NCBI GenBank assembly: GCA_903893315.1
Contig: CAITLU010000013.1
Location: forward strand, 155,026-219,025
Direction of reading: 5' to 3'
DNA: 64,000 nucleotides
Source of the DNA: an uncultured bacterium
GTDB taxonomy: Bacteria; Desulfobacterota; Binatia; UBA1149; CAITLU01
The stretch's first letter is position 1; each line of letters begins with the position of its first letter. Positions 23,831-41,733 of the stretch are shown piece after piece. The notes beneath the pieces were generated by a model. The model made no database searches, was not told where the DNA came from, and was given only the letters and a program-made list of their open reading frames with translations. Made by a program: the position numbers and the translations under genes.

Positions 23831-24907
23831 ATGGACCCGGACATCCGGCCCATGGCACGCGATTTGCTTCTCACCACTGCCAATGGCGAAACGGAGTGCA
23901 GAATGAGGCGAGCAAGTCCCAAGGTAATCGACGCGGCGTCCGCCTCGCCGACGCGGTCGGTTGCAGCGGGCGACGCGGCTGATGGCGGCGCCGCGACCGA
24001 TTCGCCGCTACCCGACAAGATCCCGCGTTTCCTGAGAACCGAGAGGTTGCTGCACTGGGCACTCGCCTTGCCGTTCCTCGGCTGCCTCTTCAGCGCTGTC
24101 GCGCTGGTCGTCGTCTACAACCCGGATCCGACGCGACCTTACCGCTACGTCTTCGCCTGGGCTCACCGCGGCTGTGGTGCCGCACTGTTCATCCTGCCGA
24201 GCCTCGTCCTGCTCACCAGCGGACGCCACATGCGAGTGCTGCTCTACAACATCCGCCAGGCGTGGGGCTGGAGACTCGACGACATCAAGTGGCTGATGCT
24301 GATGGGCCCGGCCACCGTCTTCAAGCGGATCGTGCTGCCCGACCAGGGCAAGTTCAACGCTGCCGAAAAACTGAATTTCATGATGGTGATGGTCTTTACC
24401 CCGCTTTTCATAGCCAGCGGCATCGCGATCTGGCTGCCCGACTACACTTCGCTCGACCCGTTCGCACCGTGGATGTTTCACTGCGCCCTGGCCGCAACCG
24501 GACTGCCGCTGATTCTCGGCCACATGTTCATGGCCATGATCAACCCCGAAACTCGCGTCGGGCTGAGCGGCATGATCACCGGCTCGGTGAGCCGAACCTG
24601 GGCCCAGCATCACTACGCGCGCTGGTATCGCGAGCAGTTTCCCCACCTGGTCGCTGCCGGCGGCGACCACCACAAATCCGGCGCTGAACCGGCAACTGCG
24701 GCGGCCGTGGATGGGCAAACGTCGCCGGAGGTCACATCGAATGAATTGGAGCAACCGCGCGATGCGACAATGCGGGCCGCTGAGAGTAGGGTGGCGTGCG
24801 AAGACGAATATGAATCGAGCGATCCCGGGGGGGACGAGGCTGGATGTGTCCGCGAGGCGTATTTCGCCAGCGATGCAGGTGCTTCGAGAGACGTGATGGC
24901 GCCCTGA
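23831..24907 (+). CDS. Di-heme b-type cytochrome, membrane subunit (FdnI/HydC Ni/Fe-hydrogenase b-cytochrome family)
   Basis: Four predicted transmembrane helices carry His in TM1 (LHWALALPF), TM2 (AWAHRGCG) and twice on TM4 (FHCALAATGLPLILGH). The NAAEKLNF motif is present. The exact start is uncertain. The C-terminal tail is acidic. Confidence 0.7.
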   Translation: MDPDIRPMARDLLLTTANGETECRMRRASPKVIDAASASPTRSVAAGDAADGGAATDSPLPDKIPRFLRTERLLHWALALPFLGCLFSAVALVVVYNPDPTRPYRYVFAWAHRGCGAALFILPSLVLLTSGRHMRVLLYNIRQAWGWRLDDIKWLMLMGPATVFKRIVLPDQGKFNAAEKLNFMMVMVFTPLFIASGIAIWLPDYTSLDPFAPWMFHCALAATGLPLILGHMFMAMINPETRVGLSGMITGSVSRTWAQHHYARWYREQFPHLVAAGGDHHKSGAEPATAAAVDGQTSPEVTSNELEQPRDATMRAAESRVACEDEYESSDPGGDEAGCVREAYFASDAGASRDVMAP

Positions 24908-24996
24908 TTGCATCACTGCCGCTACCCGCAATTTATTGCGCGCATCCGCGATCCTTTGCGCGATTTTGTGCGCGGATATCGGCAGTGAAAGTTCGG

Positions 24997-26499
24997 ATGG
25001 CCACCCTCATGGCGTTCACGAGCGCGTTGTTGGCCGCGGTGCCTGGGATCGTGCGTAACAAATGGAAAGGCGCCCGTCGAAGCTCCGCACGTCGGTTTCA
25101 CACGAATCTAACGACGACGTGTGGACGATGGCATTCGCCATGTGTTCTGCTGTGCCTGATGCTGCTCACTAGCACACCGATGGTCTTCCGTTCCACACCG
25201 GCACGGGCCTCCTGGGTCGAGTCGCTGGTCATGCCGGGCGAAGTCGCGGCCAAGCACGCCAAGATCGAGCACGAATGCACCAAGTGTCACGCACCGCTCG
25301 ACAAGGTGGCGCAGGAAAAACTTTGCCTGGACTGCCACAAGGAGGTGGCCGCGGATCTGCTCGAAAAGCGCGGGTTCCACGGCCAGTCACCCGATGTCAG
25401 CGGACGGCCGTGCAAGACTTGCCACGCCGAGCACAAGGGACGCACCGCCGACCTGGTGCATCTCGACCGCGACAAGTTCGACCACCGGCTGACCGATCAC
25501 CCGCTGGTCGGCGCCCATCTGCTGGCGAAATGCGACGGCTGCCACAAATCCGACAAGCGCTTTCGCGAAGCGCCTCCGCACTGCAGCGACTGTCACACCG
25601 CCAAAGATCCGCACGAAGGTACCCTCGGGCTCACCTGCAACAACTGCCACGATGAGTCAGCCTGGAAATCAGTGCGCTTCAACCACGACACCGTTGCCTT
25701 TCACCTGGAGGGCCGCCACCGTGAAGCGCACTGCGATGACTGTCACAAGACTCGCCTTTTCAAGTCCACCGCGACGGACTGCTTCTCGTGCCACGAGCGC
25801 AAGGACGATCACCACGGCAGCTTCGGCCGCGACTGTCAGTCCTGTCACACGACGCGCGGGTTTGCCGGCACGACGTTCGACCACGCCCGCAAGACGAAGT
25901 TTCCCCTGGTCGGAAAGCACGCGCACGTCGCGTGCGGGAAATGCCACAAAAACGGGCTTGCCGCAGCACTCACGCCGACCAACTGCCACGACTGCCACGA
26001 GTACGACGCGAGCCGTCACGGACTGTTCGGGAGCAAGTGCGAGAGTTGCCACACGCCGGACGACTGGCGGCGCACGATCTTCGACCACGACCGGGACACT
26101 CACTTTCCGTTGCGCGGCCACCACGTCGGTCGCCGCTGCACCGACTGTCACCGCTCGGACCTGCGCGTGGAACGCCCCGACCAGAAGTGTGTCGGCTGCC
26201 ATCGCGACGACGACGTCCACCACGGTCGCCAGGGCACCGACTGCAAACACTGCCACGACGAACGCGGCTGGAGTCGCGACGTGCTGATCGACCACAACGC
26301 AACCCGCTTTGCGCTGACGGGCGCGCATGCGCGGACAGCCTGCCTGCGCTGCCACCAGTCACCGCAGTTCAAGGAAGTCGCGCTGGAGTGCGTCGGCTGT
26401 CACAAGGAAGACGCCTCCGCGCACCGCTGCGAACGCGGCAGCGATTGCGCTCGCTGTCACGACACCTCCAACTTCCACACGATCAAGGCGGCCCACTGA
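24997..26499 (+). CDS. 18-heme c-type cytochrome made of six tandem tri-heme cytochrome c7-type domains
   Basis: There are 18 CxxCH motifs in a periodic pattern of about 75 aa: F-x-H-x(2-3)-H ... CxxCH ... CxxCH ... CxxCH, repeated six times. The start and signal peptide position are uncertain. Confidence 0.85.
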   Translation: MATLMAFTSALLAAVPGIVRNKWKGARRSSARRFHTNLTTTCGRWHSPCVLLCLMLLTSTPMVFRSTPARASWVESLVMPGEVAAKHAKIEHECTKCHAPLDKVAQEKLCLDCHKEVAADLLEKRGFHGQSPDVSGRPCKTCHAEHKGRTADLVHLDRDKFDHRLTDHPLVGAHLLAKCDGCHKSDKRFREAPPHCSDCHTAKDPHEGTLGLTCNNCHDESAWKSVRFNHDTVAFHLEGRHREAHCDDCHKTRLFKSTATDCFSCHERKDDHHGSFGRDCQSCHTTRGFAGTTFDHARKTKFPLVGKHAHVACGKCHKNGLAAALTPTNCHDCHEYDASRHGLFGSKCESCHTPDDWRRTIFDHDRDTHFPLRGHHVGRRCTDCHRSDLRVERPDQKCVGCHRDDDVHHGRQGTDCKHCHDERGWSRDVLIDHNATRFALTGAHARTACLRCHQSPQFKEVALECVGCHKEDASAHRCERGSDCARCHDTSNFHTIKAAH

Positions 26500-29183
26500 T
26501 GGCAACGCCGAAGCACATCGCTCTGTGGATCAGTGTTCTGCTTGCCGCTTTGTCGGCGGCGCCGCTGCATGCCGCCTGCACGGGCGGAGGAACTTCGGGC
26601 CTGGCCCCGCCGGCAGTTTCTTTCCTGCGCAGTTACCGCGCCCCGTTCGGTGCGCCGACTCGCATGGCGGTCGATGCTTCCGGAAAGATCTATGTGACCG
26701 ATCCCTCGCAGGGACAGGTCGTCGTGCGCGAAGCGAGCGGGCGGATCATCTCGCGTGCGACCGTCGCAACGCGCCCGGTGAGCGTCGCGGTCAACGCTGC
26801 CGGCCGCGTCTATGTTGGCGATTCAACTTCGGGCAGCGTCACCGCCTACGACTCAGAGTGGAACGCGGTGCTGCGATTCGGCCGGGGCGACGGCGAATTC
26901 CAGCAACCGAGCGATCTGTCGTTGGAAGCCGCCACCGGCGACGTCTACGTCGCCGACAGCGCGGCCCAACTGGTGAAGGTCTACAGCGCCGACGGCATTT
27001 TCCTGCGTTCATTCGGCGGGCAGGGTAACGGCGACGGCGAATTCAACTACCCGGTAGGCGTATTCGTCGACGCGCCTGCGCGCCGTGTGCTGGTAGCCGA
27101 CCAGCTCAACTATCGAATCCAGGTCTTCGATCTGAGCGGCACTTTCGTCAGTTGCTTCGGCGGGCACGGCAGCGGCGCGGGGAATTTCAACATGCCGCAG
27201 GGCGTGACGGTCGACGGCCTGGGCCGCGTGTACGTCGCCGATGCCGTCGAAGGACGCGTCCAGGTGCTCGACCGCAGCGGCGACTTCGTCGGCTTCATCG
27301 GTGACTTCGGCGACGACGCCGCGCAACTGCGCATTCCCATCGGCATGGTCATCGATCCGTCCAACAGGTTGTTCGTCGCCGCTTCCAACAACGCGCGTCT
27401 CGAAGTGTTCGGGCTCGACACCTTCGCCGATCCGGAAACCATCCTGCCCGCCGTGGTTCGGGTGGAGCCGGAAATGATCGAGCGGGCCACGCCGGGAAAC
27501 TCGATCGGCGCGTACCTGGAAGTGCCGGGATACATGCTCGACCGCATCGACGCCGCCAGCATTGTCGCGAACGGCGTTCCCGCGCTGCCGGGTACGAACT
27601 CGATCGGCGATGGGAATGGTGACGGCGTTGCCGACCTGCGCGTCGAGTTCGCTCCCACGGCTTTGCTGGCCACTCTTCCCGCCGGCGGCATCGGCGGCAT
27701 CGCCATCTCCGGAACTTTGTCCGGCATTCGCTTCGAGGGATCGACGACGGTTCGTGTGAGCACCTGCGGGCCCACCACGGTGTGCCCGCTCGGTGCAGCC
27801 GACCCTCAGTGCAACGAAGCCGTGTGCGACGCGGCAACCGGTTGCACCGTGCGGCCGAAAAACGACGGCGCCGGTTGCGAAGACGGCAGTGCCTGCACGA
27901 TGGACGACGTCTGCGCCGCTGGCATATGCACCGGTGCGACGCTGGCCTGCAACGACGTCAACGTCTGCACCGACGACGGCTGCGACACCGCTGCCGGTTG
28001 CGTCTTCGCCGCCAATACCGCGCCGTGCGACGACGCGAACGCCTGCACCACCGACGACACCTGTGCAGCACAAACCTGTTCGGGCGCGGCGATAACGTGC
28101 AACGACGGCAATGCCTGCACCGACGACGGCTGCGACACCGTGACCGGCTGCGTATTCGCCGCCAATAACGCACCGTGTGACGACGCGAGCATCTGCACCA
28201 CGGACGACACATGCGTGGACGGCGTCTGCACGGGAACGCGGATTTCCTGCAATGACGGCAACCTATGCACCGACGATGTCTGTGATCCGCTGGCCGGCTG
28301 CACGCACGCCGATAATCGCGGACCTTGTGACGACGGCGATCCGGGAACGGTAGCCGACACCTGCGACGGCAACGGTCTGTGCCGTGGCCAGACCGCGACA
28401 GGCCAATACGCGATCCTGCAGTGGCCCCCGGAATCGTCCGGGCGCCGGACGGTGACGATTGCGGCTCGTGGCCTGGTCGGCGGCAACGTGTGCGCCGAAA
28501 ACATCAGCATCGGCCGATCGGTCGAGGTGAACGGCGACGTTCTGGCCTGGTCGCCCGTCGATCGCGCGCTCAGCTTGCGTTCCGGCGTCTGGATCGACGG
28601 CAACGTCGTGAGCGGCGGCGGAGCGATTACCGGCCTCGAATTCGCAACCATCGGCGGCCTGGTCGATTCGGCCGGCGGCACCGCCGAATTCGAAGACTGC
28701 TTCGCTGCACGCTACCAAGCCGCGCAGCGCCGCGCCGAGTTCGTGACGTTGCTCCCCACGCCCGGAATGACCACGGGATCGCTGCGGCTCGGCGTGTTGG
28801 AAGAACGGCGAATTCCCGAGACGGGAGACGTCGGCAGCGGCCTGATCGTGATCGACGCCGACAGCATCAACCTGGCGACCTCGAGTCGGCTGACGATCGT
28901 CGGCGACGCATCAACCGAACAGGTCGTGGTCCGCGTTCGCGGCCGGCTTATCCTGGAACGCGGCGCGAGCATCGTCGTCGAAGGATTTCCGGCAGAGCGA
29001 CTGATCTTCGTGGTGGACGGAACAATCAACCTGCGGTTGCAGACGCGCGTCGATGGTTCGCTGTTCGGAGCCGGGACGGTCCGGATCGGCAGCGGCGGCG
29101 CGGTCAGCGGCGCGGTCATCGGCCGCACCGTCGACCTGGCTCATTCGGCAAGTATCAATCTGCAACCGTTCGTGGGGTGGTGA
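26499..29183 (+). CDS. Secreted NHL-repeat beta-propeller protein with cysteine-rich tandem repeats and a C-terminal beta-helix-like region
   Basis: The ATG overlaps the upstream TGA (ATGA). The signal peptide is MATPKHIALWISVLLAALSAAPLHAAC. NHL blades are present (YVADsxnxRVqVfD-like, about 6). Four repeats of about 51 aa follow, of the form CNDGNxCTDDGCDtxxGCvfaaNxxPCDDxxxCTTDDTC. A G/V/I-rich repetitive tail ends the protein. Confidence 0.8.
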   Translation: MATPKHIALWISVLLAALSAAPLHAACTGGGTSGLAPPAVSFLRSYRAPFGAPTRMAVDASGKIYVTDPSQGQVVVREASGRIISRATVATRPVSVAVNAAGRVYVGDSTSGSVTAYDSEWNAVLRFGRGDGEFQQPSDLSLEAATGDVYVADSAAQLVKVYSADGIFLRSFGGQGNGDGEFNYPVGVFVDAPARRVLVADQLNYRIQVFDLSGTFVSCFGGHGSGAGNFNMPQGVTVDGLGRVYVADAVEGRVQVLDRSGDFVGFIGDFGDDAAQLRIPIGMVIDPSNRLFVAASNNARLEVFGLDTFADPETILPAVVRVEPEMIERATPGNSIGAYLEVPGYMLDRIDAASIVANGVPALPGTNSIGDGNGDGVADLRVEFAPTALLATLPAGGIGGIAISGTLSGIRFEGSTTVRVSTCGPTTVCPLGAADPQCNEAVCDAATGCTVRPKNDGAGCEDGSACTMDDVCAAGICTGATLACNDVNVCTDDGCDTAAGCVFAANTAPCDDANACTTDDTCAAQTCSGAAITCNDGNACTDDGCDTVTGCVFAANNAPCDDASICTTDDTCVDGVCTGTRISCNDGNLCTDDVCDPLAGCTHADNRGPCDDGDPGTVADTCDGNGLCRGQTATGQYAILQWPPESSGRRTVTIAARGLVGGNVCAENISIGRSVEVNGDVLAWSPVDRALSLRSGVWIDGNVVSGGGAITGLEFATIGGLVDSAGGTAEFEDCFAARYQAAQRRAEFVTLLPTPGMTTGSLRLGVLEERRIPETGDVGSGLIVIDADSINLATSSRLTIVGDASTEQVVVRVRGRLILERGASIVVEGFPAERLIFVVDGTINLRLQTRVDGSLFGAGTVRIGSGGAVSGAVIGRTVDLAHSASINLQPFVGW
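27948..28390 (+). repeat. Intragenic tandem DNA repeat (about 150 bp unit, about 3 copies) encoding the cysteine-rich modules
   Basis: Units beginning tgcaacgacg...ctgcaccgacgacggctgcgacacc recur at 27948, 28098 and 28248, with decreasing identity. Confidence 0.6.
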
Positions 29184-31971: not shown

Positions 31972-32394
31972 TCCACGCACCGCGGTCTCACTCGCCACGT
32001 CGAATACGTGCGCCGCGCGTTTACGCGCTCCGTGCGCCGCCGGCCCTGAGCACCTTTTGGCGAATCGTCGAGCATCCGAAGACTACCGTGCGATCCTGCA
32101 AGTACGGCGCGTTAGCGCGCAAACAATTGCTCGGTTCGGGGCTCGCGCATCAGGACGGTTCGTTGACTTCGCGTCGGCTGCGGCCGGATTGGGTTGGCCC
32201 GCGATACCTGAAATCACCAGGGCACCGGAAATGCGCGCCGACGATGCTGCGTCCTGGAACAGGCAGAATGCGGCGAAAAACAACGCGAAGACTCCATGAA
32301 CGCTTCGGACAGGCTCTCGTCCGCCATCGTCTCGATTTTGCCGAAAGCATCCGGCAGCGGGTTGGCTCGCGTGTTGCTTATCAAACGACCTCTC

Positions 32395-33486
32395 ATGAAT
32401 GTGGCGTTTCGCACAAGGTGGACGAGGGACGCACGTTTTGCGGTGAACACTGCGGCGCTCGCGTGGTGCATGGGCATGGTCGCGGGCTGCGCGGCACAGC
32501 AAAAGCCGCAGGACATGTTCTGGCCCGACCCTCCGGACAAGCCGCGCATCAGGTTCGTGCGCAACCTCCAATCCAAGAGCGATCTCGGCGCCCCGGCCTT
32601 GCTCGAAACGCTGGTCGGACGCGACAAGGAGCAGGCCCTTTACCAGCCGATGGGCCTTGCGCTTTCCGATGACTGCCAGCGCCTCTACGTAGCCGATCGG
32701 GTCTGGAACTCCGTTTTCGTTTTCGATTTCCAATCCAAGGCCGTGCGCACCATCGGAGGCGACGAGCGTTATCCGCTGACAATGCCGGTCGGCGTAGCCC
32801 TGGACGGGGACGAGAACGTCTACGTCGCCGATACCGGCACACGCACGGTCCGCGTCTACGACAAGACCGGAAAGTTTCTGCGCGGCATCGGCAAGGACCA
32901 GCTCGTGCGGCCGACGGGAATCACCATCGACGCAACGCGCGGGCGGCTCTACGTCGTCGACACCGGACAGAACGACACTCCCGAAGCGCACCGGGTGAAA
33001 GTATTCGACCTCGCGGGCGGCCTGATACGAGAGATCGGACGGCGCGGCGAAAGCGACGGCGAATTCAATTTCCCGACCTTCGCCAACCTCGACGCGCAAG
33101 GCCGGCTCTACGTCGTCGACTCCGTGAACAGCCGTATCCAGGTCTTCGATCCGGATGGGAAGTTCTTGTGGAAGTTCGGCAGTTCCGGCGACCACATCGG
33201 GAATTTCGCGCGCCCCAAGGGCGTGGCGGTCGACAGCTTCGGCAACATCTACGTGGTCGATTCGCGCTGGGGCAACGTGCAGATCTTCAACCAGCAGGGG
33301 CAGCTGCTGATGCTTTTCGCCGGAGTCGGAGAGTACCCCGGACTGATGATCAACCCCGGCGCCATCGTCATCGACCGCCACAATCGAATCTACGTCTCCG
33401 ACACGCTGGGGAGACGCGTGAGCATCTACGAACTCATCGGCACATCTGCCGAAGACAGCCTCGAGTCACGGGGCACAGCGCCATAA
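32395..33486 (+). CDS. NHL-repeat beta-propeller lipoprotein
   Basis: The lipobox is MVAGC. Six NHL-like blades are present (LYVADrvwNsVfVFD, VYVADTGTRTVRVYD, LYVVDTGQ..., LYVVDSVNSRIQVFD, IYVVDSRWGNVQIF, IYVSDTLGRRVSIYE). Confidence 0.8.
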   Translation: MNVAFRTRWTRDARFAVNTAALAWCMGMVAGCAAQQKPQDMFWPDPPDKPRIRFVRNLQSKSDLGAPALLETLVGRDKEQALYQPMGLALSDDCQRLYVADRVWNSVFVFDFQSKAVRTIGGDERYPLTMPVGVALDGDENVYVADTGTRTVRVYDKTGKFLRGIGKDQLVRPTGITIDATRGRLYVVDTGQNDTPEAHRVKVFDLAGGLIREIGRRGESDGEFNFPTFANLDAQGRLYVVDSVNSRIQVFDPDGKFLWKFGSSGDHIGNFARPKGVAVDSFGNIYVVDSRWGNVQIFNQQGQLLMLFAGVGEYPGLMINPGAIVIDRHNRIYVSDTLGRRVSIYELIGTSAEDSLESRGTAP

Positions 33487-33604
33487 GCCGCTGGGGGAGG
33501 GGCGTATTCCGGCGAATGATGCGCGAAGTCGGACATCGAGAAATACAAACGAAGCTAGAGAGCGTGAAACGAACAGACGGAAAGGAACGATAGGAGGTTC
33601 CATC

Positions 33605-34255
33605 ATGAAAAGAGGAAGATCATTATTAATCGCCGCATCCTTGCTGGTGCCAACCATGGCGTCGGCGGGGACCATCGCCAACACGAAGCACGACTTGAGC
33701 GCGACCTCGACCGCGGTGATCAAGTCGGGGACTCAAACCGACACCTGCGTGTTCTGCCACGTATCGCACAGCAGCGCTCCGGGCGTGGCGCGGCCGTTGT
33801 GGAGCCACACGATGACCACCCAGAACCTGACCTGGGCGCCGACCACGACGGTGCGCGGGACGGTACTGCCGACCGCGATCACCAGCGCAGCGCTGACCGG
33901 CTCACGTTCATGCATGAGTTGTCACGACGGGACAGTCGCGCTCGGCGATCTGCTCAACGGAACCGGCGGCACCGTCAGCGGAACCAACGTCACGGCCGGC
34001 AAGCTGACCGGTGGCATCAACCTGCTCAACCCGGCATCGATGCAGAGCAACCATCCGATCGGTGTTGCCAAGCCGGCGGCGGCCACCGGCTTCACGGCCT
34101 TCAAGACCGTCGCGGCCAGCAGCCCCGTCAACTACGATTCGTCCGGTTTCGTACAGTGCGACTCGTGCCACAACCCGCATGACAACACCTTCGTGCCGTT
34201 CCTGAGGATCAGTCCGGCGGGCGGTGCGATCTGCACCTCCTGCCACGACATCTGA
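33605..34255 (+). CDS. Tetra-heme c-type cytochrome, small secreted (216 aa)
   Basis: A strong RBS (taggagg) sits 8 nt upstream of ATG 33605. The signal peptide is MKRGRSLLIAASLLVPTMASA. CVFCH, CMSCH, CDSCH and CTSCH are present. The N-terminal motif TKHDLS...CxxCHxSH...PLW is shared with the 39045 cytochrome. Confidence 0.85.
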   Translation: MKRGRSLLIAASLLVPTMASAGTIANTKHDLSATSTAVIKSGTQTDTCVFCHVSHSSAPGVARPLWSHTMTTQNLTWAPTTTVRGTVLPTAITSAALTGSRSCMSCHDGTVALGDLLNGTGGTVSGTNVTAGKLTGGINLLNPASMQSNHPIGVAKPAAATGFTAFKTVAASSPVNYDSSGFVQCDSCHNPHDNTFVPFLRISPAGGAICTSCHDI

Positions 34256-34352
34256 CCACGGTGCCAATGCGGCGGAGAATGCCCTCTAGTGATTGGGATT
34301 CCCCGCCGCAACGGTCTAGTAGTTGACCCCTGGAGTTCGGACCCGGGGGGGC

Positions 34353-34682
34353 ATGGTGACGAGTAGAAACTTCTGCGGAATCCTTTCGCTCGTCGTTCTG
34401 TGCGTGTCGCTCGTTGCAGCGCCGGGATCGGCAACCACGCTCGGCGACATCATCTACTCGCGCAAAGCCGGCCCGGGAGATTGGGCCCCGGCCTACTTCC
34501 CGCACTGGGTCCATCGCATCAAGTACAAGTGCTACGCGTGCCACGACACGCTGTTCCCCATGCGGCGCGGCGGTAATCCGACAATGGCGGGGATGTCGAC
34601 CGGCGCTTCGTGCGGCGCGTGTCACAACGGCAAGACTGCCTTCGGGCTGGACACCTGCCAGCGATGCCACGTTTCGCAATGA
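34353..34682 (+). CDS. Tri-heme cytochrome c7 (PpcA-like periplasmic carrier)
   Basis: A signal peptide is followed by FPHWVHRIKYKCYACH...CGACHNGKTAFGLDTCQRCH. The three CxxCH motifs have c7 spacing. The mature protein is about 80 aa. Confidence 0.85.
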   Translation: MVTSRNFCGILSLVVLCVSLVAAPGSATTLGDIIYSRKAGPGDWAPAYFPHWVHRIKYKCYACHDTLFPMRRGGNPTMAGMSTGASCGACHNGKTAFGLDTCQRCHVSQ

Positions 34683-35938
34683 GGCACCGCGCGACGATCT
34701 GCATGATCGTCGCGCTCGTCGCGGCTGCCGGAGGCTGCAGCCGCGAAACGCGCTACCGCGCGCTCGACGTTTTGTTCGAGGGCGTCCCGCCACCCGGCCA
34801 GGTCGTCAGCAACGAACCGGTCACGCATCGTCCTCGTCGTTCGCCTCCACCTCCTCCGATTCCGCCTCCCGTCGCGTTCACGCCGCTGCCGCCCAACGCA
34901 GGCCTCGCGTCGCTGCAAACCTGGGACGACGTCGTGCGACTGCTGCCCAAAGACCAGGCCGGCAATCCGGACTGGACTGCGGCGGTCGACGAAAAAATGA
35001 TCGCCCCGCGTTCCGTACTGGACCCCGACTCCGCGGAGTCGGAAGCGATCACTCTTGACGCCCTCGATGCTTCGTCGGTCGCTCCGGATGTCGAACTCGC
35101 CGCCAAGTCGGATCCGGCTTTCGATGTCTCCTTCTCACACCGGAAGCACGGGACCTGGCTGAGCTGCGGGAACTGCCACCCTGCCCCCTTCGAGAAGAAA
35201 GCCGGGCAGACGCCGATGACCCCGGCCAGCGTGCACGCACAAGAGTACTGCGCTGCCTGTCACGGCAAGGTCGCGTTCGACATCGGACCCAATTGCCTGT
35301 CGTGCCACCTTCGCACCATGCCGCGCGACGCGGCCGGACAGGTAGATTGGAATCGCGCACTGGATGAGCAGCGCATCGCGCCGCGCCCTGGACCGGGATC
35401 TAAAACCGTCGATCAGGAGGTTCTCAAACTCGATATAGAAATGACGCCGCCGGCCCAGCCCGCGTTTGCGTCGGTATTTTCACACGGCACACACACGCGG
35501 TTGATAGCTTGCGCCAGTTGCCATCCGAGTCCCTACTCGGCCAAGGTTCGCACGGCGATGACCGACACCGCCGAACTGCATTCGTCCCGCTATTGCGGTT
35601 CCTGCCACGGCACGGTGTCGTTTGGAATCACCGGATTCTGTCAGCGCTGCCACCCGGCTCTCGAAAAAGCGCGTCAGCACCAGGAAACTCTGGACCTCGA
35701 TGTGGCGGTGACGCCCAAGGCGCAGACCGGCGGCGCCACGACGTTCTCGCACAAGCAGCACCGCTGGGTGGAGTGTGCCACCTGTCACAGCAACCTCTTC
35801 ACCAACACGCCGGGGGCAACCACCATGCCGAAGGCCGATATCTACGGCGGCAAGTACTGCGCCCCCTGCCACGGCAAGGTGACCGACGATCTCACCGTCA
35901 GTTGCCGGCGCTGTCATTCGGGCGGTGACGCCCGATGA
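34679..35938 (+). CDS. Nona-heme lipoprotein cytochrome (three tandem c7-type domains behind a Pro-rich linker)
   Basis: The ATGA overlap is with the c7 gene. The lipobox-like sequence is VALVAAAGGCS, followed by a PPPPPIPPP linker. The module FSH(x)xH...CxxCH...YCxxCHG...CxxCH is repeated three times. Confidence 0.85.
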   Translation: MRHRATICMIVALVAAAGGCSRETRYRALDVLFEGVPPPGQVVSNEPVTHRPRRSPPPPPIPPPVAFTPLPPNAGLASLQTWDDVVRLLPKDQAGNPDWTAAVDEKMIAPRSVLDPDSAESEAITLDALDASSVAPDVELAAKSDPAFDVSFSHRKHGTWLSCGNCHPAPFEKKAGQTPMTPASVHAQEYCAACHGKVAFDIGPNCLSCHLRTMPRDAAGQVDWNRALDEQRIAPRPGPGSKTVDQEVLKLDIEMTPPAQPAFASVFSHGTHTRLIACASCHPSPYSAKVRTAMTDTAELHSSRYCGSCHGTVSFGITGFCQRCHPALEKARQHQETLDLDVAVTPKAQTGGATTFSHKQHRWVECATCHSNLFTNTPGATTMPKADIYGGKYCAPCHGKVTDDLTVSCRRCHSGGDAR

Positions 35939-35963: not shown

Positions 35964-37979
35964 ATGAAGCGCGCCGCACGGCCAGCGATCGCGTGCGGCG
36001 TTCTCGCGTGCATGGTGCTCACCATCACGCCTGCGGCCGAGGCCGGACTGAACTGGGGGCTGGGTCGCTGGGAAGGCGACACCACGCTTCTCGTGAACTG
36101 GGAAACCCAGCACGACAAACGGACTCAGGACCGTTACGACACGCTTCTCTTCGAAGAGCGCCTGCGTCTGCGCAACACCGGCGCCTTCATCTTCGATCCG
36201 CGCTTGCTGACGCTCAATCTCAGCGGATCGTTCGGAGCGCCTCAGGAAATGGCGCTGGGGCACACCGACACGTCGCTGCGGGTGGGCAACGGAACTCTGT
36301 TCGACTATGCCTTCGAGGGCCTGGTCCTGGCGGATACGGCTTACCCGACCACTCTGTTCGCCACCCGCAGCCAGACCATGCTTACGCAGGGCTTCGGCGG
36401 TCGCTCTGATCTGACCTTCCAGAGCTTCGGCGGCACCTTCGATCTGCACGAAAACAATTTCCTCGAGGCCCGCGGGTGGCGCGGATTGACCGCGACGCTG
36501 GACGCCCGCGAGGAGTCGCTCCTCGAAAATTCGTCGTATTTCGGCAGTCCGTTCAAACGCGACGAGACCCGACAGATAGTCAACGCGCAGGCGCACCGCT
36601 CCGGCGAGAACTCGGACCTCGATCTGCACTACGAACTCAACTCCGTAAGCGACCCGCTCAACCCGTCGAACGTATTCGACAGCCACACATTTCGTGCGAC
36701 TCACAGTCTCGACTTCGGTCCCACGCTCAACCGGCGCCTCGACTCGGGACTCTATTCCTTCATCCGCAGCGGCGCATCGAACGGCAGTTACGTGTCGGCG
36801 AGCGAGGCTCTGCACGTCGACCACCATCGCGACTTCTCGACCAACTATCGCTACGACTTTTCCCAGAGCGATTCGGAATCCGGCACCACCACTACCAATA
36901 CCGCCAACGCCACGCTGCTGAGGCGGTTCTATCGCAACCTCTCGACCACGCTCGGCGCGCGCGGATCACTGCAGAATTTCCCGAACGGCGACAAGTACCT
37001 TTACGGAGGCGAGGCCGGCGCCGACTACCGGCGCGCGATTCCCGGCCAGGGGCAACTGTTCGCGGACACCCACCTCGGTTACGAGGTTGACAACAACAAC
37101 TTCACCTCGTCGTTCGTCGATGAACCCGACGAAAGGCAGACGGTTCCAATCGATGTCGGCACCGGCGCCGGGTTCACCCTGACTCATCCATTCGTGGTCA
37201 TCGGATCGATCGTGGTGGTCGACCTCGGTCCCGACGGCAACTCGCGCTTCGACACCATCGTCAACCGGGACTACCTCGTCGTCGCGGAAGGCAGCCGCAC
37301 CCGGATCGTGCCGTTGCCCGACAGCCCCGTGCTTCGCGCCGGCGATCAGTTGTCGGTGAGCTACACCTACACCATCGCGCCCAGTCTCGAGTATTCAACC
37401 TTCGACACGAGCATACGCACCGGTCTGGAATTCCCGTGGCTTTCGCTATCCTACGAACACATGATGAGCGATCAGACGCGTCTGTCCGGGACTTCCGCCC
37501 CGCAATTCCTGATCGATCAGAACGCGGACCGGTTTCAACTCGAGCTGAGGAGCCGGTGGAAACGCCTGCTCGCGCAATCGGCGGTCGATTACGAAATTCT
37601 CAAATCGTCGATCGTCGACTCCAACGGATTGCGCTTCGGCCAACTTCTCGTCTACCAAATCAACGCCGGCCTGGTCGCGGAGTTGACCGCTGACGAGAAC
37701 TTCGTCGACTACCCGAAAGAAAATCGCAGTTCCGAGTCCTACCTGGCGCGGGCTTCGATCGACTGGACGGCCTTCGAAGGGCTTTCCGCTTCGCCTTTCA
37801 TCGACTACCGTAGTTTTCACGACTCGACCGTCATGAGCGACGTTGTCGTCGAGGCCGGAATGCGCCTGCACTGGACCTATCGAAGCGTGGACATCTTCCC
37901 AACTGTCACCTGGACCGACTATCGCAACAGGATGGATGGCGTTCATGCCGAACTGCGCATCACCCGACGTTTCTTCTGA
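35964..37979 (+). CDS. Outer-membrane beta-barrel protein (putative porin of a porin-cytochrome conduit)
   Basis: The signal peptide is MKRAARPAIACGVLACMVLTITPAAEA. The protein is about 670 aa with Y/T/S/G/N-rich alternating beta-strand texture. The C-terminal ...ELRITRRFF ends in an aromatic Phe, the OMP sorting signature. Confidence 0.7.
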   Translation: MKRAARPAIACGVLACMVLTITPAAEAGLNWGLGRWEGDTTLLVNWETQHDKRTQDRYDTLLFEERLRLRNTGAFIFDPRLLTLNLSGSFGAPQEMALGHTDTSLRVGNGTLFDYAFEGLVLADTAYPTTLFATRSQTMLTQGFGGRSDLTFQSFGGTFDLHENNFLEARGWRGLTATLDAREESLLENSSYFGSPFKRDETRQIVNAQAHRSGENSDLDLHYELNSVSDPLNPSNVFDSHTFRATHSLDFGPTLNRRLDSGLYSFIRSGASNGSYVSASEALHVDHHRDFSTNYRYDFSQSDSESGTTTTNTANATLLRRFYRNLSTTLGARGSLQNFPNGDKYLYGGEAGADYRRAIPGQGQLFADTHLGYEVDNNNFTSSFVDEPDERQTVPIDVGTGAGFTLTHPFVVIGSIVVVDLGPDGNSRFDTIVNRDYLVVAEGSRTRIVPLPDSPVLRAGDQLSVSYTYTIAPSLEYSTFDTSIRTGLEFPWLSLSYEHMMSDQTRLSGTSAPQFLIDQNADRFQLELRSRWKRLLAQSAVDYEILKSSIVDSNGLRFGQLLVYQINAGLVAELTADENFVDYPKENRSSESYLARASIDWTAFEGLSASPFIDYRSFHDSTVMSDVVVEAGMRLHWTYRSVDIFPTVTWTDYRNRMDGVHAELRITRRFF

Positions 37980-38001
37980 TCCGCCTTGCGGCACCCGGCC
38001 G

Positions 38002-39048
38002 GTGGCTGCGGCCGGCCGGCGCTGGGCGCGCGGACTGGCGTTGGCGGCGCCGGCCCTGCTCGCTGCGGCCGCGGCTGCCTGCTCGTCGGGTTGGCCGACC
38101 CACGGCCAGCCCGCGGAGCCCGCGCGGATGGTGTGGCCCGAAGCGCCGGACGCGCCTCGCATAGAACTGGTTTCCACGTTCAGCGCCGGCTCCGATCTCG
38201 GCATCGAACTCTCCATATGGTCGCGTATTGCCAACGTCATTTCAGGCGGCGGCGAAACGCGGATGGTACGCCCCAGCGGCGTGAGTGCCGCCGGCGGACG
38301 CATCGCGGTGGCCGATCCGGGAGCCGGACTCGTTCACCTCTACGATCCGGCCCGCCGCCGCGCTCTGGCGCTGCGCGAGTGTGGTGACACGGCGCTCGCA
38401 GAGCCGGTCAGCGCAATTCTGCTCGGCGAGCGCCTGTACGTGGCCGACGCGAGCGCGGCGCGCATTTTCGTATTCGATCTCGACGGCGCCTGCATAGCCG
38501 GCTGGCCGCTTGAAGAGGGATCGCGTCCGGCCGGGTTGGCGGCCGACCCCGCGCGGTCGAGAATCTACGTGGCGGAAGCCGCATTACATCGCGTCGTCGT
38601 CTACGATCCACAGGGCAACAGAGTTCTGGAAATCGGCCGCCGCGGCGCCGCGCCCGGCCAGTTCAATTATCCAACTTGGCTGGCAGTAGACGACGCCGGT
38701 AACATATACGTAACGGACGCGCTCAACTTCCGGGTGCAGATCTTCGATCCGGAGGGCCGGCCGACCGGCGTCTTCGGTGAGCAAGGCGACGCCTCCGGAG
38801 CGCTGTCGCGACCAAAGGGCATAGGTATCGATCGTCATGGGCACATCTATCTGGTCGATGCTCTTTTCGACGCCGTGCAGATGTTCGATCGCGAGGGCCA
38901 CTACCTGATGGTCTTCGGCGGCAGCGGCCGCGAGCCGGGGCTTTTCTGGCTTCCTTCCGGCCTCGCCGTCGATGGCGACCGCATCTACGTTTCGGACTCG
39001 TACAATCAGCGGGTGCAGGTGTTCCGCTTCCTGGCAGACGAGTCATGA
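38002..39048 (+). CDS. NHL-repeat beta-propeller protein (probable lipoprotein)
   Basis: The GTG start gives MAAAGRRWARGLALAAPALLAAAAAAC-SSG. The NHL blades are LYVADASAARIFVFD, IYVAEAALHRVVVYD, IYVTDALNFRVQIFD, IYLVDALFDAVQMFD and IYVSDSYNQRVQVF. Confidence 0.75.
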   Translation: MAAAGRRWARGLALAAPALLAAAAAACSSGWPTHGQPAEPARMVWPEAPDAPRIELVSTFSAGSDLGIELSIWSRIANVISGGGETRMVRPSGVSAAGGRIAVADPGAGLVHLYDPARRRALALRECGDTALAEPVSAILLGERLYVADASAARIFVFDLDGACIAGWPLEEGSRPAGLAADPARSRIYVAEAALHRVVVYDPQGNRVLEIGRRGAAPGQFNYPTWLAVDDAGNIYVTDALNFRVQIFDPEGRPTGVFGEQGDASGALSRPKGIGIDRHGHIYLVDALFDAVQMFDREGHYLMVFGGSGREPGLFWLPSGLAVDGDRIYVSDSYNQRVQVFRFLADES

Positions 39049-40754
39049 CGCTGCGCCTGTTCGCCTGTCTCGCCGTTCTCTTGATGCTGGCCGCGGCCGG
39101 CGCGGCCCAAGCCGGCCTGCGTGAGACCGCGCACAACCTGAGCCCGAGTGCAGTCGGAGGCCGCTCCTCAGCTTCCGCAGCCGTGGCTCCATCTATCGAC
39201 GGTACCGACAGCGACCTCTGCGCGTATTGCCACACGCCACACTCGGCAAAGACCCAGCGCGGTCTGTGGAGCCGCGCTCTGGCGCCCGCGCGCTACAAGC
39301 TCTACGAGAGCAGCACCACCGAAGCGAAACTGCAGCAACCGAACGGAAGCTCGCGTCTGTGTCTGTCCTGCCACGACGGCACCATGGCCGCCGGATCGAC
39401 GTCGCGTCAGGGTGGAGCGGCGGTCAGCAAGTTGACCGGTCGCAGCGTGCTCGGCACCGATCTTTCCGACGACCACCCCATCTCGTTCGTCTACGATCAA
39501 TCACTGGTCACCCGGCGACGGGATCTCGCCAACCCGGCGTCCCTGATCGGCGGTGTCCGCCTCGACTCGAGCGCGCAGGTCCAGTGCACCTCGTGTCACG
39601 ACGCGCACGCAGACCGTCATCCGCAATTCCTCGTCGCCGATCCCGCGTTTTCGCGACTGTGCCTGACCTGCCACCGGCCGCAGCACTGGCAGGAATCGGC
39701 ACACGCGACTTCACCGACCAGTGCTCTCGGCGCCGGATCGTTGCCCGGGCTGGGCTACGCGACCGTCGGCGAAAATGGCTGCTCGAGCTGCCATCGCTCC
39801 CACGGCGCCGAGCACCCTCAGCGCCTGCTCACATCAGCAACGGAAGAAGGGGTCTGCTTCAATTGTCACGACGGCCGCATCGCCGAGAAGGATATGCGGC
39901 GCGAATCGCGCAAGTTCAGCGCGCATCGAGTCGACGTGTACACCGATGTCCACGACCCGACCGAAAACCCCAACCACATGCCGATGCACGTCGAGTGCAT
40001 CGACTGCCACAACGCTCACGCAGCGCGCGCCGACTCCGGCGGCGGACCGATGCCCGGCCCTCTCACCGGTGTATCGGGCGTGACCGTCTCCGGCGGTTTC
40101 GTGCGCGAGGCGACTTTCGAGTACGAAGTCTGTCTGAAGTGCCACGGAATAAGCGAAGCGCGCGACCCAGTGGTGTTCCGCAACGACAGCCCGAGCAATC
40201 TGCGGATGAAGATCAACCCGCAGAACGTCTCGTTTCACCCCATCGCCGACGTCGGCCGCAACCCCACCATCGCGGGCCTGGTCTCGCCGTGGACTCCGGC
40301 CAGCCGTACGTCGTGCACCGCGTGTCACGACAACAACTCCGCCGACCGCAGCGCACCGCGCGGACCGCATGGTTCCAATTACCGACCTATCCTCGCTGCC
40401 GAGTATCACCTCGACGCGACGCCGGGCAGGGAGTCATATCAACTCTATGCCCTGTGTTATCGCTGCCATGACCGCAATACGCTGCTCGACCGCCACGAAG
40501 GCTTCCCGCACCGGTCGCACGTCGTCGACGACGGCGCGAGCTGCGCCGTCTGTCACGACGCTCACGGTTCGCCCCACAACGCGCACCTGATCAATTTCAT
40601 GCGCCGCGACCTTACCGGCAAGGAGGTCGTGCTGCCGTCCGTCAAGACCGGCCGCCTCGAATACATATCGAATGCGCCGGGGTCAGGTCAGTGCTCGCTC
40701 AGTTGCCACGGATACGATCACAACGACGCGAAGTATCCTTCACAAGGCAGGTAG
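39045..40754 (+). CDS. Dodeca-heme c-type cytochrome, secreted
   Basis: The ATGA overlap is with the upstream NHL gene. The signal peptide is MTLRLFACLAVLLMLAAAGAAQA. There are eleven CxxCH motifs plus CSLSCH. The N-terminal TAHNLS...CAYCHTPH...LW motif is present. Confidence 0.85.
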   Translation: MTLRLFACLAVLLMLAAAGAAQAGLRETAHNLSPSAVGGRSSASAAVAPSIDGTDSDLCAYCHTPHSAKTQRGLWSRALAPARYKLYESSTTEAKLQQPNGSSRLCLSCHDGTMAAGSTSRQGGAAVSKLTGRSVLGTDLSDDHPISFVYDQSLVTRRRDLANPASLIGGVRLDSSAQVQCTSCHDAHADRHPQFLVADPAFSRLCLTCHRPQHWQESAHATSPTSALGAGSLPGLGYATVGENGCSSCHRSHGAEHPQRLLTSATEEGVCFNCHDGRIAEKDMRRESRKFSAHRVDVYTDVHDPTENPNHMPMHVECIDCHNAHAARADSGGGPMPGPLTGVSGVTVSGGFVREATFEYEVCLKCHGISEARDPVVFRNDSPSNLRMKINPQNVSFHPIADVGRNPTIAGLVSPWTPASRTSCTACHDNNSADRSAPRGPHGSNYRPILAAEYHLDATPGRESYQLYALCYRCHDRNTLLDRHEGFPHRSHVVDDGASCAVCHDAHGSPHNAHLINFMRRDLTGKEVVLPSVKTGRLEYISNAPGSGQCSLSCHGYDHNDAKYPSQGR

Positions 40755-41656: not shown

Positions 41657-41733
41657 CGGGGTGTAGCTCAGCCTGGTAGAGCACTGCGTTCGGGACGCAG
41701 GAGCCGGAGGTTCAAATCCTCTCACCCCGACCA
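41657..41733 (+). tRNA. tRNA-Pro (anticodon CGG)
   Basis: A cloverleaf was folded by hand. The acceptor stem CGGGGTG/CACCCCG is present, with D-stem GCTC/GAGC and anticodon stem CTGCG/CGCAG. The loop TTCGGGA has CGG at positions 34-36. The T-arm is GGAGG-TTCAAAT-CCTCT, with discriminator A and an encoded CCA. Confidence 0.9.

Follow-up and report, generated by a model that had tools for sequence, protein, structure and literature searches.

A candidate OmcE-type filament subunit within an outer-membrane electron-conduit cluster of a probable member of Ca. Binatia

The window analysed here, a 64-kb stretch of contig CAITLU010000013.1 (assembly GCA_903893315.1) from a bacterium that probably belongs to Ca. 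Binatia (Binatota), contains between positions 23831 and 40754 a block in which all cytochrome, NHL and barrel genes lie on one strand, as judged from gene calls, Pfam and NCBIfam scans and motif counts. The subject of this study is one gene of the block, at 33605-34255 of the + strand, whose ATG is the first possible start of the open reading frame (ORF) and whose product is a tetraheme c-type cytochrome of 216 amino acids (aa). It is near certain that this protein is a secreted cytochrome of the OmcE/UetA family, encoded within an outer-membrane electron-conduit cluster. We further propose, with a probability of roughly 0.6, that it polymerises as the major subunit of an OmcE-type filament. 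Solved structures of cytochrome nanowires are available from few organisms, and those of the OmcE type only from two Desulfuromonadia. The gene stands in a seven-gene core (NHL, subunit, c7, c7, barrel, NHL, 12-heme cytochrome) that is kept in five related loci (L003 and L086-L089), where the subunit protein is 52-85% identical to the one described here.

The product of the gene contains four CXXCH motifs (C48/C51/H52, C103/C106/H107, C185/C188/H189 and C210/C213/H214) and five histidines besides those of the motifs, nine in total. By inspection, its N-terminus is a Sec signal peptide, MKRGRSLLIAASLLVPTMASA followed by GT, with no lipobox cysteine, in agreement with a preliminary description of this DNA, which had read from the ORF a secreted tetraheme protein of 216 aa. 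A phmmer search against all PDB chains returned only two sequences, both of them OmcE filaments and both matched over their full length. The better match (E 3.8e-23, residues 6-215 against 4-217) is 9YUQ, which corresponds to DSOUD_2954, the OmcE homologue of Desulfuromonas soudanensis WTL; the other (E 5.5e-22) is 7TFS, the OmcE nanowire of Geobacter sulfurreducens. Identity to the two solved OmcEs is 32-35%, and BLASTP against the G. sulfurreducens protein gave 34% with an E value of 1.5e-27. In alignments with 18 homologues, both solved OmcEs included, and with 61 homologues, the eight cysteines, the four proximal histidines and the four distal histidines (H29, H55, H150 and H192) are invariant, as are the PLW, CxSCHDG and HP motifs. 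The heme-ligating residues are also kept, with rare exceptions, across about 140 domain sequences. The same features have been named as conserved among OmcE homologues (Petersen et al, 2025).

The AlphaFold2 (AF2) model of the protein (predicted local distance difference test, pLDDT, 70; predicted template-modelling score, pTM, 0.59) is mostly coil, as expected for the OmcE family, and a Foldseek search with it returned 7TFS as the sole match (E 1e-5, template-modelling score 0.5). The predicted structure reproduces the OmcE fold, in which the coil is wrapped round a linear heme chain. The preliminary description had named a compact c3-like fold as the observation that would speak against its proposal; such a fold is not seen, because the model matches 7TFS only. 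The public annotation of the protein, 'cytochrome c3 family protein', is a generic name. Together with weak Pfam matches to Cytochrome_C7 and Cytochrom_c3_2 confined to the last 35 residues (180-215), it could be taken to indicate an ordinary periplasmic class III (c3-type) tetraheme cytochrome. However, these matches span a single paired-CXXCH motif, the Pfam family Cytochrom_CIII has no match in the protein, the 195 mature residues with about 80% coil are unlike a compact c3 of ~110 aa, and no c3 structure was matched by sequence or by fold. We regard a c3-type cytochrome as highly improbable.

The ninth histidine of the protein, H68 in the sequence PLWSH (nt 33806-33808), is replaced by arginine in both solved OmcEs. 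Nine histidines for four hemes have been proposed as the mark of an ideal terminator, or 'stopper' (Petersen et al, 2025), and H68 could accordingly point to a subordinate role in the filament, as a cap or stopper, and not to the major subunit. Across the approximately 140 family domains, however, His (60 domains), Arg (61) and Lys (13) share this position, an alternation that fits a propionate contact and not an axial ligand. The position is thus conserved as basic, and H68 probably makes contact with a heme propionate, which is the simplest reading, and is not a ninth iron ligand. The equation of a ninth histidine with a stopper was rejected on account of this alternation. Moreover, the family hidden Markov model (HMM) finds in the window no further stand-alone gene of the OmcE type that might act as major subunit, and the gene occupies the omcE position with the strongest expression signals of the cluster. 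A role restricted to capping is in our view improbable.

In a rough neighbour-joining tree, which is indicative only because the distances are large, the tetraheme protein falls into one stand-alone clade with both solved OmcEs and with a protein in UetA position from locus L028, described below; a second stand-alone clade lies apart from it, and OmcE-like domains fused to larger cytochromes form a clade of their own. Its closest relative is encoded in a groundwater metagenome-assembled genome (MAG), GCA_016218925.1. At a threshold of E <= 1e-10, an OmcE query matches over 2200 proteins. The family is large and the gene in itself an unremarkable member of it, and the protein is already in public databases; the added value of the locus is the probable new host lineage, the bridge that it forms between omcE and uet clusters, and a fused domain that is a candidate for the base of a filament.

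The sequences flanking the gene on either side bear on its expression. The leader (33487-33604) has a GC content of 0.55 and 68% purines, against a GC content of 0.65 for the window, and the stretch 33531-33630 (GC 0.41) is the minimum of all 6390 overlapping 100-nt segments of the 64 kb. The leader had been called conspicuously AT-rich, and this is correct and not a chance fluctuation, given that it contains the lowest-GC 100-nt stretch of the window. It has no significant secondary structure, with a fold z-score of -0.71 and a centroid that is almost unpaired. As riboswitches are known upstream of Geobacter cytochrome genes, the whole window was scanned with Rfam; no family was found in the leader, and only a tRNA was matched. 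The Shine-Dalgarno (SD) site taGGAGG forms an anti-SD duplex of -10.9 kcal/mol, the strongest of 13 cluster genes. The earlier reading of a near-perfect ribosome-binding site (RBS), written as taggagg-N8-ATG, stands as regards its strength and is corrected as regards the spacer, which is of 7 nt and not 8. Six loci were compared, namely the five related loci and the G. sulfurreducens omcE locus (L084). In each of them GGAGG, shortened to GGAG in L087 and in Geobacter, is placed 6-8 nt from the start. The upstream gap in the compared loci is 100-160 bp long with lowered GC, that of G. sulfurreducens omcE being 577 bp.

On the 3' side, the 107-nt spacer that holds the hairpin at 34268-34310 has a folding energy of -47.5 kcal/mol (z -1.95). 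Hairpins of different sequence occur at the equivalent site after the stop codon in L003, L086, L088 and L089, so that the position is kept, and G. sulfurreducens omcE is followed at the same position by a canonical intrinsic terminator. Ranked against every 60-nt fold of its own locus, the post-stop hairpin comes within the top 0.1-4% in six of seven loci. A scan of 32200-34700 for intrinsic terminators gave matches at chance level, and not at gene ends. A hairpin without a U-tract straight after the gene of a many-copy subunit is a classical arrangement for partial termination or for protection of the 3' end, and the hairpin of the window is a candidate element that would separate expression of the subunit from that of the downstream genes. 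The combination of a strong SD site, an unstructured purine-rich leader and a conserved hairpin fits elevated expression. The locus offers testable material on how a filament subunit may be expressed in excess of its partners, through its SD site and post-stop hairpin. A second hairpin, CCCCUGGAGUUCGGACCCGGGGGGG, at 34327-34349 overlaps the G-run that forms the RBS of the following c7 gene (start 34353) and might damp its translation.

The coordinates of the cluster are collected in Table 1. With respect to the minimal omcE cluster, defined as two multiheme cytochromes, two beta-propeller lipoproteins, OmcE and a large beta-barrel (Petersen et al, 2025), all classes are present in the window, the barrel being putative. 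The G. sulfurreducens locus is ordered purHDE, ppcA, resB, ccsB, two multiheme cytochromes, NHL, the 577-bp gap, omcE, a 752-aa protein without Pfam matches, and glycosyltransferases; the order multiheme cytochrome, multiheme cytochrome, NHL, gap, tetraheme cytochrome and, further on, putative barrel is common to both loci. The NHL genes that precede omcE in four Geobacter-type loci share 34-37% identity with NHL396 (E 5e-55 to 6e-69), the gene of G. sulfurreducens among them (34%, E 5e-60), and MHC460 is weakly related to a 370-aa cytochrome of G. sulfurreducens (E 1.6e-14, and 4e-14 in a second comparison). The putative barrel of the window resembles the putative barrel adjacent to Geobacter omcE (L084 10863-13121) in position, in size and in its C-terminal ...FF, although the two show no demonstrable sequence homology.

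Table 1. Coordinates of the tetraheme subunit gene, its expression signals and the neighbouring genes of the cluster (window positions).
Feature	Position	Strand	Basis or remark
b-type cytochrome, 358 aa	23831-24907	+	Ni_hydr_CYTB
c7-type cytochrome, 18 hemes, 446 aa	25159-26499	+	Pfam Cytochrome_C7; heme motif count
NHL and Cys-rich-repeat protein, 894 aa	26499-29183	+	Pfam NHL; weak Dicty_CTDC; C..DDxC pattern
Multiheme cytochrome MHC462, 462 aa	29192-30580	+	4 CXXCH
Multiheme cytochrome MHC460, 460 aa	30589-31971	+	9 CXXCH
NHL beta-propeller NHL396, 396 aa	32296-33486	+	Pfam NHL E 9e-25; lipobox-like MVAGC; directly upstream of subunit gene
Leader (intergenic region), 118 bp	33487-33604	+	purine-rich, low GC, predicted largely unstructured
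Shine-Dalgarno site taGGAGG	33591-33597	+	spacer to ATG 7 nt (ttccatc)
Tetraheme c-type cytochrome, OmcE/UetA family, candidate nanowire subunit, 216 aa (coding sequence)	33605-34255	+	
Signal peptide, residues 1-21 (MKRGRSLLIAASLLVPTMASA)	33605-33667	+	AxA cleavage site before GTIANTKHDLS; aligns with signal peptides of solved OmcEs
GC-rich hairpin without U-tract	34268-34310	+	starts 13 nt after stop codon; candidate partial terminator or 3'-end stabiliser
Triheme c7-type cytochrome, 109 aa	34353-34682	+	Pfam Cytochrome_C7; 3 CXXCH; probably periplasmic
Nonaheme cytochrome c7x3_419, 419 aa, three c7 triheme domains	34679-35938	+	TIGR04257 nanowire_3heme, three stretches, E 3.6e-41; 9 CXXCH
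Putative outer-membrane beta-barrel, 671 aa (655 aa from start 36012)	35964-37979	+	signal peptide; ends ...RITRRFF
Second NHL beta-propeller, 370 aa (or 306 aa)	37936-39048	+	Pfam NHL E 5e-28; lipobox-like AAAAC
12-heme cytochrome MHC569, UetJ-like, 569 aa	39045-40754	+	
OmcE-like domain (residues 6-211) of the 12-heme protein	39060-39677	+	BLASTP; family HMM

The subunit itself is homologous to G. sulfurreducens OmcE (GSU0618, 7TFS) over its full length at 34-35% identity, with the CXXCH motifs and distal histidines in identical columns and with a signal peptide followed by the N-terminal motif TKHDLS. It differs in being 16 residues shorter (OmcE has 232 aa, as the preliminary description had correctly stated) and in having His instead of Arg at position 68. 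The cluster of the window, unlike that of G. sulfurreducens, has no following glycosyltransferase genes, has a gap of 118 instead of 577 bp, and possesses c7 genes before the barrel as well as an additional pair of NHL and 12-heme genes; its host is probably a member of Binatia and not of Desulfuromonadia. The OmcE homologue of D. soudanensis WTL, which forms bundled antiparallel nanowires, is of similar length (218 aa) with conserved ligands, and its 'minimal' cluster also has no glycosylation genes, although identity is only 32%. Bundling is not inferable for the window protein because the loops of the bundling interface have been reported as not conserved among OmcE homologues (Petersen et al, 2025). 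The hexaheme nanowire OmcS of G. sulfurreducens is comparable in the mode of working given in the literature, an insulated heme chain with inter-subunit histidine ligation, and in its genomic association with a barrel and accessory genes. It has neither sequence nor fold similarity to the tetraheme protein and was absent from every search made with it.

A second comparison is offered by the uetABCDEFGHIJ cluster of 'Ca. Tenderia electrophaga' and some Gallionella, an undecaheme electron-transfer system for which electron uptake has been proposed. Its parts are an extracellular tetraheme cytochrome (UetA), a peptidyl-prolyl isomerase (PPIase, UetB), a 28-strand barrel (UetC), c7 trihemes (UetD, UetE and UetG), a cupredoxin (UetF), two NHL proteins (UetH and UetI) and an undecaheme 'doubled CXXCH' cytochrome (UetJ). 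The window holds a tetraheme cytochrome, a putative barrel, c7 trihemes, two NHL proteins and an 11-12-heme cytochrome on one strand between 32296 and 40754, and the parts list of the uet cluster fits the window even better than that of the omcE cluster. The differences are the gene order, which is NHL, tetraheme, c7, c7, barrel, NHL, 12-heme in the window, and the PPIase (rotamase) and cupredoxin, for neither of which a Pfam match was found in the genes of 23.8-40.8 kb. The exact published uet gene order, PPIase included, is found in a Thiohalomonadaceae MAG (L028 10001-20741), where tetraheme, PPIase, barrel-sized protein, c7, c7, unknown, TPR, c7, NHL, NHL and multiheme genes follow one another. 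There, the HMM assigns the protein in UetA position to the OmcE family (E 6e-51), and the protein in UetJ position starts with an OmcE-like domain. Taking this locus as a proxy for the Tenderia sequences, UetA would be an OmcE-family protein, an explicit link that was not found in the literature searched and seems not to have been made there; the two names meet only in a review that mentions OmcE in the title of one of its references. The locus of the window bridges the omcE nanowire clusters, associated with metal reduction, and the uet clusters, associated with electron uptake.

The 12-heme protein at the end of the cluster provides a further connection between these systems. The preliminary description had called it dodeca-heme and had noticed an N-terminal motif that it shares with the tetraheme protein. 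The heme count is right, with 11 CXXCH motifs and, by inspection, one CX3CH, and the shared motif is real but was understated, as a whole OmcE-like domain is present (BLASTP, 33% identity over residues 52-210, E 2e-18; family HMM, E 4e-45, residues 6-211 against HMM positions 6-216). This domain keeps all eight axial-ligand histidines. Pfam recognises Paired_CXXCH_1 and the MtrC/MtrF II-IV domain in the protein, and its 8-heme extension is similar (E 3e-10) to cytochromes of 335-370 aa that Geobacter omcE clusters encode as separate proteins. As in MtrCAB conduits, whose MtrC/MtrF domain II/IV is matched in the 12-heme protein, a barrel is combined with periplasmic and surface multiheme cytochromes; the tetraheme protein and the barrel are, however, not homologous to Mtr components, and NHL propellers and a polymerisable subunit are added.

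The distribution of such fused proteins was followed among the matches listed in a scan of genome contigs from GTDB representatives (L005-L083); these matches are mostly N-domains of 12-heme proteins and not close relatives of the tetraheme protein. A stand-alone OmcE-like gene accompanies the fused gene in 32 of the 34 listed loci with at least 7 kb of upstream sequence, and the barrel family does so in 29 of the 34. Among the matches listed, the barrel family lies directly upstream of NHL and fused-cytochrome genes in about 50 loci of many phyla. By their titles, the listed loci come from many phyla, among them Verrucomicrobiota, Planctomycetota, Acidobacteriota, Nitrospirota, Bacteroidota and relatives, Elusimicrobiota, Campylobacterota, Pseudomonadota and Thermodesulfobacteriota. 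The module composed of a tetraheme cytochrome, a putative barrel of ~650-750 aa, an NHL protein and an 11-12-heme cytochrome with an OmcE-like N-domain is found in MAGs labelled as more than a dozen phyla, a spread far wider than the five phyla from which OmcE clusters have been reported (Petersen et al, 2025). The window presents a clean and compact OmcE-type system in a lineage, probably Binatota, outside those five. This placement of the host follows the best named matches of the isoleucyl-tRNA synthetase (IleRS) encoded in the window, which is 90% identical to that of a MAG named 'Deltaproteobacteria bacterium' and 67-77% identical to several carrying the label Candidatus Binatia.

In the reading that we favour, the pre-protein would be exported by Sec and would receive its four c-type hemes in the periplasm, and the co-encoded outer-membrane barrel and NHL propellers would help the subunit to reach the cell surface. 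Outside the cell, it would polymerise head-to-tail as in the solved OmcE filaments, each subunit contributing four bis-His hemes to one continuous chain and one distal histidine ligating a heme of the neighbouring subunit. Output above that of the neighbouring genes would come from the strongest SD site of the cluster, the purine-rich unstructured leader and the post-stop hairpin, which would limit read-through or shield the 3' end. Whether electrons leave the cell to reduce metals, as they do in Geobacter, or are taken up, as has been proposed for Tenderia, is not readable from the sequence. The suggestion of the preliminary description, a candidate filament former of the OmcE kind that is probably highly expressed, gains support from the homology, the 16 invariant ligand residues, the cluster and the expression signals.

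The principal alternative, distinctly less probable although it deserves serious consideration, is a surface or periplasmic partner that does not polymerise. The tetraheme protein would then be a single unit docked on the complex of barrel and 12-heme protein, as UetA was first modelled, or might pair 1:1 with the OmcE-like domain of the 12-heme protein, thereby extending or capping a finite conduit without micrometre-long filaments. Several observations that favour this alternative also weigh, together with others, against a polymerising subunit. The make-up of the cluster is nearer to that of the uet cluster, which was first modelled as a finite porin-cytochrome complex. A 1:1 heterocomplex is possible because the 12-heme protein has an OmcE-like domain of its own, a natural heterodimer partner, and stand-alone and fused genes co-occur in 32 of the 34 loci mentioned above. 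Polymerisation has been shown for only two members of the family, both from Desulfuromonadia, to which the window protein is 32-35% identical, and the AF2 model is only moderately confident and contains no hemes. Homology of the window barrel with the Geobacter omcE barrel is not demonstrable: BLAST gave no match, an iterated HMM was weak, and hhalign gave a probability of 17%, over the C-terminal 79 columns only. As regards expression, a scan of 32200-34700, leader included, found no sigma-70 consensus promoter, and the upstream alignment of six relatives shared only the SD site and a weak GAAACGAAC-like patch, from which no promoter could be called; the separate internal promoter that had been suggested is not established. 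Among local folds, the hairpin of the window reaches no more than the top 4%, and L087 is the one relative in which the ranking of local folds reveals no strong post-stop hairpin.

Against a non-polymerising partner, every heme-ligating residue of the filament structures is kept, the four distal histidines included, and the match of the predicted fold is specific to a filament subunit. The expression signals, which stand above those of the neighbouring genes, suit a many-copy subunit better than a 1:1 partner, and the authors of the uet study themselves raised the formation of a polymer as a possibility. We therefore retain the polymerising major subunit as the more probable function of the tetraheme protein.

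It can be hypothesised, more tentatively and at less than even odds, that the 12-heme protein is the base of the filament. Since its N-domain corresponds to a full OmcE-like subunit with eight axial ligands, stand-alone subunits could polymerise onto it through the same His-heme interface, and the 8-heme extension, together with the barrel and NHL proteins, would wire the filament through the outer membrane. This proposition is consistent with the homology of the domain and with its co-occurrence with the stand-alone gene, the barrel and the NHL gene in 29-32 of the 34 listed loci, and the similarity of the extension to separate cytochromes gives a hint of the Rosetta-stone type. The omcE operons described so far encode no candidate for a tip or an anchor (Petersen et al, 2025). 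Through the fused domain, a filament could conceivably be attached to a conduit in the outer membrane. If this is true, the OmcE nanowire system and the 'Uet' complex for electron uptake would be a single machine that occurs in more than a dozen phyla, and a concrete candidate would be at hand for what initiates or anchors a cytochrome nanowire.

Among the remaining genes of the cluster, the putative barrel has no Pfam match, and a PDB profile search with the barrel family was likewise empty. The genes of 23831-29183 also occur in L003, L087 and L088, with the 894-aa protein additionally in L086, and it is probably through this block, in the inner membrane and the periplasm, that the pathway is entered. 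Its first two genes (23831-26499), encoding the Ni_hydr_CYTB protein and the 18-heme c7 cytochrome, resemble a quinol-oxidising cytochrome of the inner membrane split in two and may supply the conduit. A tRNA-Pro gene (CGG) is located at 41657-41733, downstream of rpe and immediately beyond the cytochrome block.

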